The position numbers and the translations under genes are program-made. This document shows positions 6,914-7,684 of a DNA stretch of 16,440 bases, in pieces. This stretch comes from an uncultured Methanosarcinales archaeon (lineage in GTDB: Archaea; Nanobdellota; Nanobdellia; Woesearchaeales; SM23-78): positions 1 to 16,440 of the forward strand of contig CAYRRQ010000013.1 in assembly GCA_964426715.1 (NCBI GenBank), given 5' to 3'. Each line of letters opens with the position of its first letter. The stretch's first letter is position 1. Under the pieces are notes generated by a model that searched no databases, was not told where the DNA came from, and was given only the letters and a program-made list of their open reading frames with translations.

Positions 6914-7684
6914 TCATTTATTTCTTGTTATTTTGAAAAGGAATACTGACGCGGTTATGAACATTGCCAGACTCAGGTACTGCCCCCCGCTAAGCCCAAG
7001 GAACCTGGGGTCGTCTCTCCAAAAGGTTATTATGAGCCTCAGAGCACCATATATTAATACAAACCCCCAGAAGATTACTCCCTCCTTTAATCTCTTTTTT
7101 ATATTATCTTTTGTGTACATGAATGAGAGAACAAAAAAGATTATCAGGTTCTTCAATGCCTCGTATAACTGGCTGGGATGCCTGCACCCATCATAGCCAG
7201 GGAAGACAACGCACCAAGGTACGCTGGTCCTGTTCCCTACTAGTTCTCCGTTAATAAAATTAGCAATCCTTCCCAGGAACAGGAAGAAGGCCAGGGGCAG
7301 GACTGCGAGGTCTGCAAGCTGGTAAAAGCTTATCTTGTGTTTTTTGCAGAATAACAAACCCGCGATTACAGCACCGATTAATCCGCCGTGAAAACTCATG
7401 CCGCCGTGCCATATCATCAGGACTTCAAGAGGCTCTCTTATCAGCGTGCCCGGATGGTAGAATACAAACAACAAGAATCTGGCGCCAATAATGGCTCCGA
7501 GCACCAAGTAGATTATGAGTGTGTCTGCTTTTGACTCATCAAAATTCCTGATTTTTCCCTTTTTTGCCGTGTGTCTGAGCAAGAGGTAGGCTGCTATGAA
7601 ACCAATAGCATATACCAGGCCGTAGTACCTTATCTCTAAGGGGCCTATGCTCAGAAGAGCAGGGTTTATGTTATGGTAAAACAT
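6914..7684 (-). CDS. lgt: Prolipoprotein (phosphatidylglycerol) diacylglyceryl transferase, bacterial Lgt family
   Basis: IRYYGLVYAIGF, WHGGMSFHGGLIG, GRIANFINGELVGNRTSVPW and CRHPSQLYEALKN match the Lgt signature blocks (Y26, H103GGL, R143/N146/E151/G154 and R239-HPSQLYE equivalents of E. coli). The protein is multi-TM. Confidence 0.88.
   Translation of the reverse strand: MFYHNINPALLSIGPLEIRYYGLVYAIGFIAAYLLLRHTAKKGKIRNFDESKADTLIIYLVLGAIIGARFLLFVFYHPGTLIREPLEVLMIWHGGMSFHGGLIGAVIAGLLFCKKHKISFYQLADLAVLPLAFFLFLGRIANFINGELVGNRTSVPWCVVFPGYDGCRHPSQLYEALKNLIIFFVLSFMYTKDNIKKRLKEGVIFWGFVLIYGALRLIITFWRDDPRFLGLSGGQYLSLAMFITASVFLFKITRNK

Follow-up and report, generated by a model that had tools for sequence, protein, structure and literature searches.

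Lgt in a Woesearchaeales archaeon and the bacterial-type lipoprotein pathway to which it likely belongs

Archaea are described in the current specialist literature as lacking the bacterial lipoprotein enzymes Lgt and Lsp (PMC12462473, PMC13251419, PMC13631571). The same view was taken in a preliminary description of the DNA studied here, a stretch of 16,440 nucleotides (the window; GenBank assembly GCA_964426715.1, contig CAYRRQ010000013.1) from a Woesearchaeales (DPANN) archaeon, in which an open reading frame (ORF) resembling lgt, the gene for prolipoprotein diacylglyceryl transferase, stands among archaeal genes. Contig C13 (16,517 bp), almost all of which is covered by the window, belongs to a metagenome-assembled genome (MAG), referred to below as G000, which comprises 916 kb in 84 contigs and is 82% complete. 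The locus raises the question of whether this is a working Lgt and, if so, with which partners, from what source and on which lipid it would act. The results reported here make it likely that the ORF encodes a working orthologue of the bacterial enzyme, within a complete bacterial-type lipoprotein pathway.

Lgt, its partner enzymes and its substrates

Profile matches, the predicted fold and the required residues confirmed that the window ORF is a genuine full-length member of the Lgt family and an ordinary enzyme of its kind. In the profile check proposed in the preliminary description, the Pfam family PF01790 (LGT) aligned with residues 8-250 over nearly its full length (profile positions 1-239 of 240; E 4.1e-69; 233 bits, cut-off 24.9), and the NCBIfam equivalog TIGR00544 'lgt' scored 180.9 bits (cut-off 118.9). 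Escherichia coli Lgt (5AZB/5AZC) was the sole solved structure matched by sequence (E 8.4e-39). An AlphaFold2 model built on 46 relatives had a mean predicted local distance difference test score (pLDDT) of 90.9 and a predicted template modeling score (pTM) of 0.86. When this predicted model was compared with the PDB by Foldseek, 5AZB was the single significant match (E 9.8e-15; TM scores, 0.82/0.75), and the predicted seven-transmembrane body, together with the arm and head elements, agreed with the crystal structure.

The four motifs quoted in the preliminary description (EIRYYGL, FHGGL, GRIANFINGELVG and RHPSQLYE) are all present in the translation. Residues were compared in an alignment of 162 Lgt sequences, comprising 75 archaeal and 87 bacterial rows. 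The E. coli positions kept in the window Lgt are Y26, H103, G104, D129, R143, N146, E151, G154, H196, Y235, R239 and R246; in the numbering of the window protein, the residues include Y21(=Y26), H99(=H103), D125, R139(=R143), N142(=N146), E147(=E151), G150(=G154), H169, Y212(=Y235) and R216(=R239). Activity of the E. coli enzyme requires Y26, R143, N146, G154 and R239, plus H103 and E151, and all of these are kept in the window and near-invariant across the 75 archaeal rows. R143 and R239 bind the phosphate head group of the lipid.

The archaeal enzyme thus shares with E. coli Lgt homology over the full length and residues Y26, H103, D129, R143, N146, E151, G154, Y235 and R239, and its genome, like that of E. 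coli, also has Lsp and lipobox substrates. It differs in its archaeal host, in a Thr that replaces E243 (considered below), in a short extracytoplasmic head loop, with 17 residues between the G154 and RHPSQ positions, and in a pair of cysteines in that loop, Cys158 and Cys167 (PWCVVFPGYDGCRHP). Both cysteines are present in 49/75 archaeal rows versus 1/87 bacterial rows and are invariant among the 46 closest Lgt relatives; they probably form a lineage-specific disulfide.

A search of the bin for Lsp (signal peptidase II), also proposed in the preliminary description, recovered the gene in two parts separated by an assembly gap. The N-terminal half runs on the reverse strand of contig C17 as far as position 1, and the C-terminal half continues from position 1 of contig C49. 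The halves do not overlap in sequence; about 9 positions of the PF01252 profile are missing between the two, and the catalytic aspartate motifs GHVVDFID and FNLAD are both present. Because lsp is split exactly at two contig ends, C17 and C49 must be genomic neighbors.

G000 also encodes Lit, the lipoprotein intramolecular transacylase. The protein aligned with Bacillus cereus Lit (7b0o), with SHLQDVK matching IHFVDVK and FHQVLF matching FHKLLF, and residues His85, Asp88, Val89, Lys90, Phe149, Phe152, His153 and Phe157 of the active site are kept. The roles of these residues, including the His85/His153 dyad and Phe157, have been identified previously (PMC8275575), and G000 Lit is predicted to be catalytically intact. 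Lit was detected in 32 of 41 relatives. Nothing above the cut-off for Lnt was found in five genomes, G000 among them.

The set of enzymes resembles the lyso-form pathway of Firmicutes (Enterococcus faecalis; Bacillus cereus Lit, PDB 7B0O), in which Lgt, Lsp and Lit are likewise encoded, no Lnt is found, and His85, His153 and Phe157 of Lit are conserved (PMC8275575). However, the relationship between G000 Lit and B. cereus Lit is distant (sequence match, E 1e-4), the Lgt groups with Pseudomonadota-type rather than Bacillota-type sequences, and lgt, lsp and lit are unlinked in G000.

The archaeal AliA/AliB system (arCOG02177/02178, DUF63; Haloferax volcanii HVO_2859 and HVO_2611) has the same task, the lipidation of lipobox cysteines in secreted archaeal proteins (PMC12462473), but belongs to another protein family. 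HVO_2859 (AliA) is annotated as a DUF63 protein (PMC9426492). DUF63 (PF01889) scored above its cut-off in none of G000 and four relatives, the latter four genomes being 99-100% complete, and was found in the positive controls H. volcanii, Methanocaldococcus jannaschii and Methanosarcina acetivorans. Woesearchaeales appear to use the bacterial enzymes instead of AliA/AliB.

Candidate substrates are present. As stated in the preliminary description, a lipobox protein is encoded 1.5 kb from lgt. This 261-amino-acid protein begins MRFSNLLVILIIIILLFGLLAVSGC, matches the lipoprotein signal-peptide pattern and has a predicted lipobox, V-S-G-C, ending at Cys25. Its homologues hold the equivalent place by lgt in six related MAGs, and although overall identity is only 37-47%, the lipobox cysteine is kept in 6/6 orthologues (ISSC, ITSC, ITSC, IAGC, LAGC and FTGC). 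In order to estimate the number of substrates, the lipoprotein signal-peptide pattern was run on a simple ORF set, and the matches with Cys at position +1 were compared with the number expected from composition. There were 20 matches (5.2 expected) in G000 and 19 (3.6 expected) in a closed relative that also has Lgt and Lsp (G095). Two genomes of the same class in which Lgt and Lsp are absent gave 1 match (1.2 expected; the 490,885-bp closed genome G050) and 4 matches (2.6 expected; G056). Some 14-15 of the G000 matches are classical, with L-x-[GAS]-C after a hydrophobic stretch started by K/R, which suggests that the genome encodes about 15-20 lipobox proteins.

Lgt was present in 38/41 relatives (23/25 genera; 22/24 families), in all 27 of 27 further genomes of the order and, in a larger sample, in 114 of 116 good-quality genomes of the order. 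Among the other orders of the class, Lgt above the cut-off was detected in 31/173 genomes and varied family by family, some families being wholly positive and others wholly negative (e.g., 0/9, 0/7 and 0/11). It was absent from the four model archaea among the control genomes. Lsp (PF01252) was found in 40/41 relatives. In a 201-genome sample of the class, 56 genomes had both Lgt and Lsp, 3 had Lgt only, none had Lsp only and 142 had neither; related genomes are not independent in such counts, but the pattern holds family by family. The pairing holds also in four genomes in which Lgt is of separate ancestry. Within Woesearchaeales, Lgt is near-universal and counts as a core gene of the order; several other orders of the class also have it. 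The preliminary description had raised the possibility that the family is widespread and vertically inherited in archaea; this is largely so within the lineage, but not for archaea as a whole.

From these observations we infer the enzymatic activity and the order of steps as follows. Lipobox precursors, including the 261-amino-acid protein, would be secreted and inserted into the membrane. Lgt would then use a phosphatidylglycerol-type donor to attach a glyceryl-lipid group to the lipobox cysteine through its thiol, Lsp would cleave the signal peptide ahead of the modified cysteine, and Lit would transfer the sn-2 acyl chain onto the alpha-amino group exposed by this cleavage to give a lyso-form lipoprotein. 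The donor lipid would be scavenged from a host or neighbor, and the pathway genes would be of ancient bacterial origin, acquired when the order arose or earlier and inherited vertically ever since.

The lipid donor

The preliminary description assumed an ether-lipid membrane. This premise is doubtful, given that lipid-synthesis genes of neither type were detected and that Lit needs an ester-linked acyl chain. Lipid-synthesis families were sought in G000 and four complete relatives. Geranylgeranylglyceryl phosphate synthase (GGGPS), PlsY and CdsA were each found in 0/5 genomes, the one match to CdsA being the CarS gene of a relative (G140). CarS was found in 1/5 genomes and CDP-alcohol phosphatidyltransferase in 2/5, in neither case in G000. 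In G140, CarS (CDP-archaeol synthase) lies directly beside the CDP-alcohol phosphatidyltransferase gene. Some Woesearchaeales appear to retain part of archaeal polar-lipid head-group synthesis, of which G000 shows none. As G000 is only 82% complete, absences in it rest on the four complete relatives, which are from other families; this counts against the pathway account given above.

A PlsC-like ORF on contig C38 of G000 was not counted as evidence for ester lipids. Its match to PF01553 is weak (27.6 bits), its TIGR00530 score is 29.9 bits versus a cut-off of 103, and its motif, NHPGIYKD, has the spacing HX5D rather than HX4D.

Because no phospholipid synthesis of archaeal or bacterial type was detected, the donor would come from a host or neighbor, and the lipid of G000 is most likely scavenged rather than self-made. 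Uptake of lipid from elsewhere is usual for DPANN archaea, and Lgt needs a donor of the phosphatidylglycerol type. The nature of the acyl chains is bounded by Lit, for which the transfer of an ester-linked sn-2 acyl chain is the one reaction known (PMC8275575). The conservation of an intact Lit therefore suggests bacterial-type diacylglycerol for the lipoprotein anchors, at the least. Whether the donor is ester-type and bacterial-like is, in our estimate, about evenly balanced. The fuller proposal, that Woesearchaeales anchor surface proteins on ester-linked diacylglycerol from scavenged bacterial phospholipid, is tentative and, taken as a whole, rather more apt to fail than to hold.

Alternatively, a true Lgt might use an archaeal ether lipid, archaetidylglycerol, obtained from an archaeal host, and attach diphytanylglyceryl (archaeol) to the cysteine. 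Archaeal (haloarchaeal) lipoproteins with thioether-linked archaeol have been reported (PMC12462473), the kept head-group-binding residues R143 and R239 need not read chain chemistry, and CarS is retained next to CDP-alcohol phosphatidyltransferase in G140. In addition, Lit was not found in 9/41 relatives, so that the ester-lipid argument is not order-wide. However, G000 and the 32 Lit-bearing relatives have Lit with an intact catalytic dyad, and its reaction (PMC8275575) is impossible on an ether lipid. Archaeal lipids also have the opposite glycerol stereochemistry, and GGGPS was found in none of the five genomes. An ether-lipid donor thus seems unlikely, although it retains real weight, above all for the relatives in which Lit was not found.

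Catalytic competence, genomic setting and origin of lgt

The preliminary description held that every Lgt block is retained. This stands for the four motifs, but not for E. coli position E243, which is Thr220 in the window and is the single departure among the conserved positions compared. E243 has been classed as important in E. coli Lgt, and its replacement counts against an active enzyme. Thr occupies this position in the window and in eight close relatives, including same-genus and same-family sequences (9/75 archaeal rows); the other archaeal rows include 39 with Glu and 20 with Asp. It would be possible on this basis that in this genus the Lgt fold belongs to a protein that lacks activity or serves a different function. 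However, the absolutely required residues are all kept, and the clade across which the Thr variant is conserved has also retained Lsp, Lit and lipobox proteins, a pattern that speaks for functional selection. Furthermore, E243A allows growth of an E. coli delta-lgt delta-lpp strain (PMC13251419), and the position is Asp or another non-Glu residue in 14/87 bacterial rows. Thr220 was treated for these last two reasons as a caveat rather than as a loss of function, and an inactive or repurposed Lgt is improbable.

The preliminary description further proposed that lgt had been acquired horizontally. Trees were built from Lgt of Woesearchaeales, other orders of the class, Patescibacteria, Bacillota, Actinomycetota, Bacteroidota, Pseudomonadota and others, as a careful tree (111 rows; LG+C20+F+G4) and a quick tree (162 rows). 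In the careful tree, the window Lgt formed a clade with a same-genus relative (support, 99/97). Forty-four rows, 29 from Woesearchaeales and 15 from other orders, formed a clade with archaeal members only (ultrafast bootstrap [UFboot], 75; SH-aLRT, 99), which was nested in a group of 70 rows (100/100) with Pseudomonadota-type, some Patescibacteria and some Bacteroidota sequences. Constraining 46 archaeal rows to one clade was not rejected (approximately unbiased test, p-AU 0.51), and a single origin for all 50 archaeal rows was rejected (p-AU 0.0036). Four sequences from other orders (L172, L175, L177 and L179, from genomes G141, G185, G201 and G219, respectively) branch with Patescibacteria and Actinomycetota. 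These are probably separate acquisitions, and since each of the four genomes has Lsp, repeated acquisition of the Lgt-Lsp pair by small symbiotic archaea is suggested.

Some placements differed between the trees. Four Bacteroidota Lgts were nested in the archaeal cluster in the quick tree but not in the careful tree, and no archaea-to-Bacteroidota transfer is claimed. Among the Bacteroidota, L090, L157 and L159 are inside the cluster in the quick tree and outside it in the careful tree, so that their placement is unstable. L002/L065 fall outside the archaeal cluster in the quick tree.

These trees are explained most simply by a single ancient transfer from Bacteria to an ancestor of Woesearchaeales and allied orders, followed by vertical descent and, in other parts of the class, by a small number of later acquisitions. 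The direction of transfer was inferred from distribution, because Lgt is near-universal in Bacteria and restricted to one class in Archaea; that the tree is unrooted, with five bacterial phyla well sampled, tells against certainty on this point. The horizontal origin proposed in the preliminary description is thus upheld as an event of the deep past and not as a recent or genome-specific one.

A bacterial island acquired recently, by this genome or genus, is very improbable. The family is otherwise bacterial and the four model control archaea lack Lgt, as such an acquisition would have it. However, the presence of Lgt in 114/116 genomes of the order and in 22/24 families of the first sample is not that of a recent arrival, nor is the native composition of the DNA. 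The sequences nearest to the window Lgt are all woesearchaeal, the best matches in bacterial genomes being 35-48% identical, and the gene tree tracks taxonomy at genus level. Synteny with archaeal housekeeping genes is kept down to 47% Lgt identity.

This synteny, and the archaeal character of the contig, bear also on the assembly (Table 1). The preliminary description's placement of an intact lgt in an archaeal genome, with an archaeal-type tpiA (triose-phosphate isomerase) and trxA/trxB at its flanks, was borne out by the full-length Lgt profile matches and by the matches to the neighboring genes. The ribosomal proteins L15e, L31e and S19e on the contig are of archaeal/eukaryotic type, S19e lying 3.7 kb from lgt, and an archaeal HemK-like methyltransferase and an archaeal-type GlmM are further archaeal genes. 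GC content is even along the contig (0.36-0.47), with no step at lgt, and the tetranucleotide profile of each 3-kb stretch correlates at 0.89-0.96 with that of the genome (genome mean, 0.88), so that the chimera check suggested in the preliminary description revealed no break. The order trxB-trxA-lgt-tpiA-pilin-like-lipoprotein-pilin-like recurs in MAGs independently assembled in other studies (L010, L018-L024), and the trxA-lgt-tpiA core also in L028, L040 and L060, where Lgt identity is only 47-55%. Adjacency of lgt and tpiA is kept in 12 related loci and that of trxA and lgt in 8; conserved adjacency is the only connection between trxA/trxB and lgt that was seen. Lgt is likewise encoded in genomes of the order and class that are closed as single contigs (G033, G095, G216 and G197). 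Although the MAG is fragmented (84 contigs, 82% complete), an artifact in which bacterial DNA was fused to an archaeal contig or sorted into an archaeal bin is not tenable, because lgt sits between archaeal genes on a single contig of even composition, its gene order has been independently assembled in at least ten MAGs from different studies, and closed genomes of the order carry it as well.

Table 1. Genes and ORFs discussed in the text; positions are those of the window unless another contig is given
Feature	Contig	Position	Strand	Evidence or remark
Ribosomal protein L15e	window	876-1415	minus	PF00827, E 1e-60
Ribosomal protein L31e	window	2024-2605	minus	PF01198, E 6e-17
Ribosomal protein S19e	window	2804-3247	minus	PF01090, E 3e-43
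Pilin-like ORF	window	3854-4366		class III-type N-terminus
Cys-rich lipobox protein, probable Lgt substrate	window	4673..5458	plus	261 aa; lipoprotein signal-peptide pattern
Predicted signal peptide of the lipobox protein	window	4673-4744	plus	
Predicted lipobox Cys25	window	4745-4747	plus	
Pilin-like ORF	window	5526-6050		class III-type N-terminus
tpiA, archaeal-type triose-phosphate isomerase, directly downstream of lgt	window	6137..6796	minus	NF003302, 280 bits; PF00121
lgt, prolipoprotein diacylglyceryl transferase	window	6914..7684	minus	256 aa, ATG start; PF01790, TIGR00544, 5azb
trxA, thioredoxin, directly upstream of lgt	window	7757..8068	minus	TIGR01068, 109.5 bits
trxB, thioredoxin-disulfide reductase-like flavoprotein	window	8127..9050	minus	PF07992, E 7e-46; TIGR01292, 331.7 bits, just below cut-off 343
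ORF between trxB and ileS	window	9127-9621	minus	164 aa; no Pfam or NCBIfam match
lit, lipoprotein intramolecular transacylase	G000:C2	14607-15131	minus	PF07314, 86.6-86.8 bits, profile 2-176/176
lsp, N-terminal half	G000:C17	1-330	reverse	PF01252, 40.4 bits, profile 2-77
lsp, C-terminal half	G000:C49	1-260		PF01252, 66.9 bits, profile 87-141
PlsC-like ORF	G000:C38	7408-7944	minus	267 aa
CarS beside CDP-alcohol phosphatidyltransferase	G140:C3	216414-217459		complete relative

Several other features of the locus and of its relatives were observed. The lipobox protein is flanked by two pilin-like ORFs with class III-type N-termini (MNKKASMQLGINAIV... and MMRKASFQLSVNFLV...), and this pilin-lipoprotein-pilin trio is conserved beside lgt-tpiA in six related MAGs. 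L31e is twice as long as usual, owing to a C-terminal extension of ~110 residues that is highly enriched in Lys and Glu.

In public databases, the closest proteins and genome entries go under the names 'Candidatus Woesearchaeota archaeon', 'Nanoarchaeota archaeon' and 'Candidatus Nanoarchaeia archaeon'. Many public records with the title 'uncultured Methanosarcinales archaeon' also have a woesearchaeal-type Lgt and synteny (L021, L027, L030, L035-L042, L045, L047, L048, L050, L052, L053, L057 and L076), as does a 'Euryarchaeota archaeon SM23-78' record (L020). The organism names on these records look like placeholders or misassignments.

Relation to previous reports and significance

Recent papers state that archaeal homologues of the bacterial enzymes Lgt and Lsp have not been identified or reported (PMC12462473, published in 2025, and PMC13631571, 2026) or that Lgt is 'absent from archaea', the latter from a RefSeq survey as of February 2021 (PMC13251419, 2026). 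The three papers build on this absence, reasoning that archaeal ether lipids require different enzymes. Our literature search found no earlier report of Lgt or Lsp in Woesearchaeota, Nanoarchaeota or DPANN, which is not proof that there is none. Public annotation pipelines already name such proteins 'prolipoprotein diacylglyceryl transferase [Candidatus Woesearchaeota archaeon]'. Because the enzyme is an ordinary Lgt that these pipelines already recognize, the interest is in its setting and not in a new mechanism; what deserves attention is the archaeal host and the implication for its membrane lipids.

In Woesearchaeales, lgt is an old, vertically inherited core gene within a full bacterial-type pathway. 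The phyletic picture of lipoprotein biogenesis is corrected by a whole archaeal order with canonical Lgt and Lsp, usually Lit, and no detectable AliA. These enzymes may account for the AliA-less archaeal genomes whose many predicted lipoproteins were left unexplained in PMC12462473, if Woesearchaeales are among them. The finding raises the question of which lipids uncultured DPANN archaea carry, and from whom, and makes it approachable at the bench. If the proposal of scavenged ester lipids is true, the membranes of a large archaeal group would be bacterial-type or mixed, and the partners on which the group depends may be bacteria rather than archaea. In that case the 'lipid divide' would have been crossed in nature by a whole lineage, and the crossing would have come to light through an Lgt-Lsp-Lit pathway that is chemically sensible only with ester lipids.

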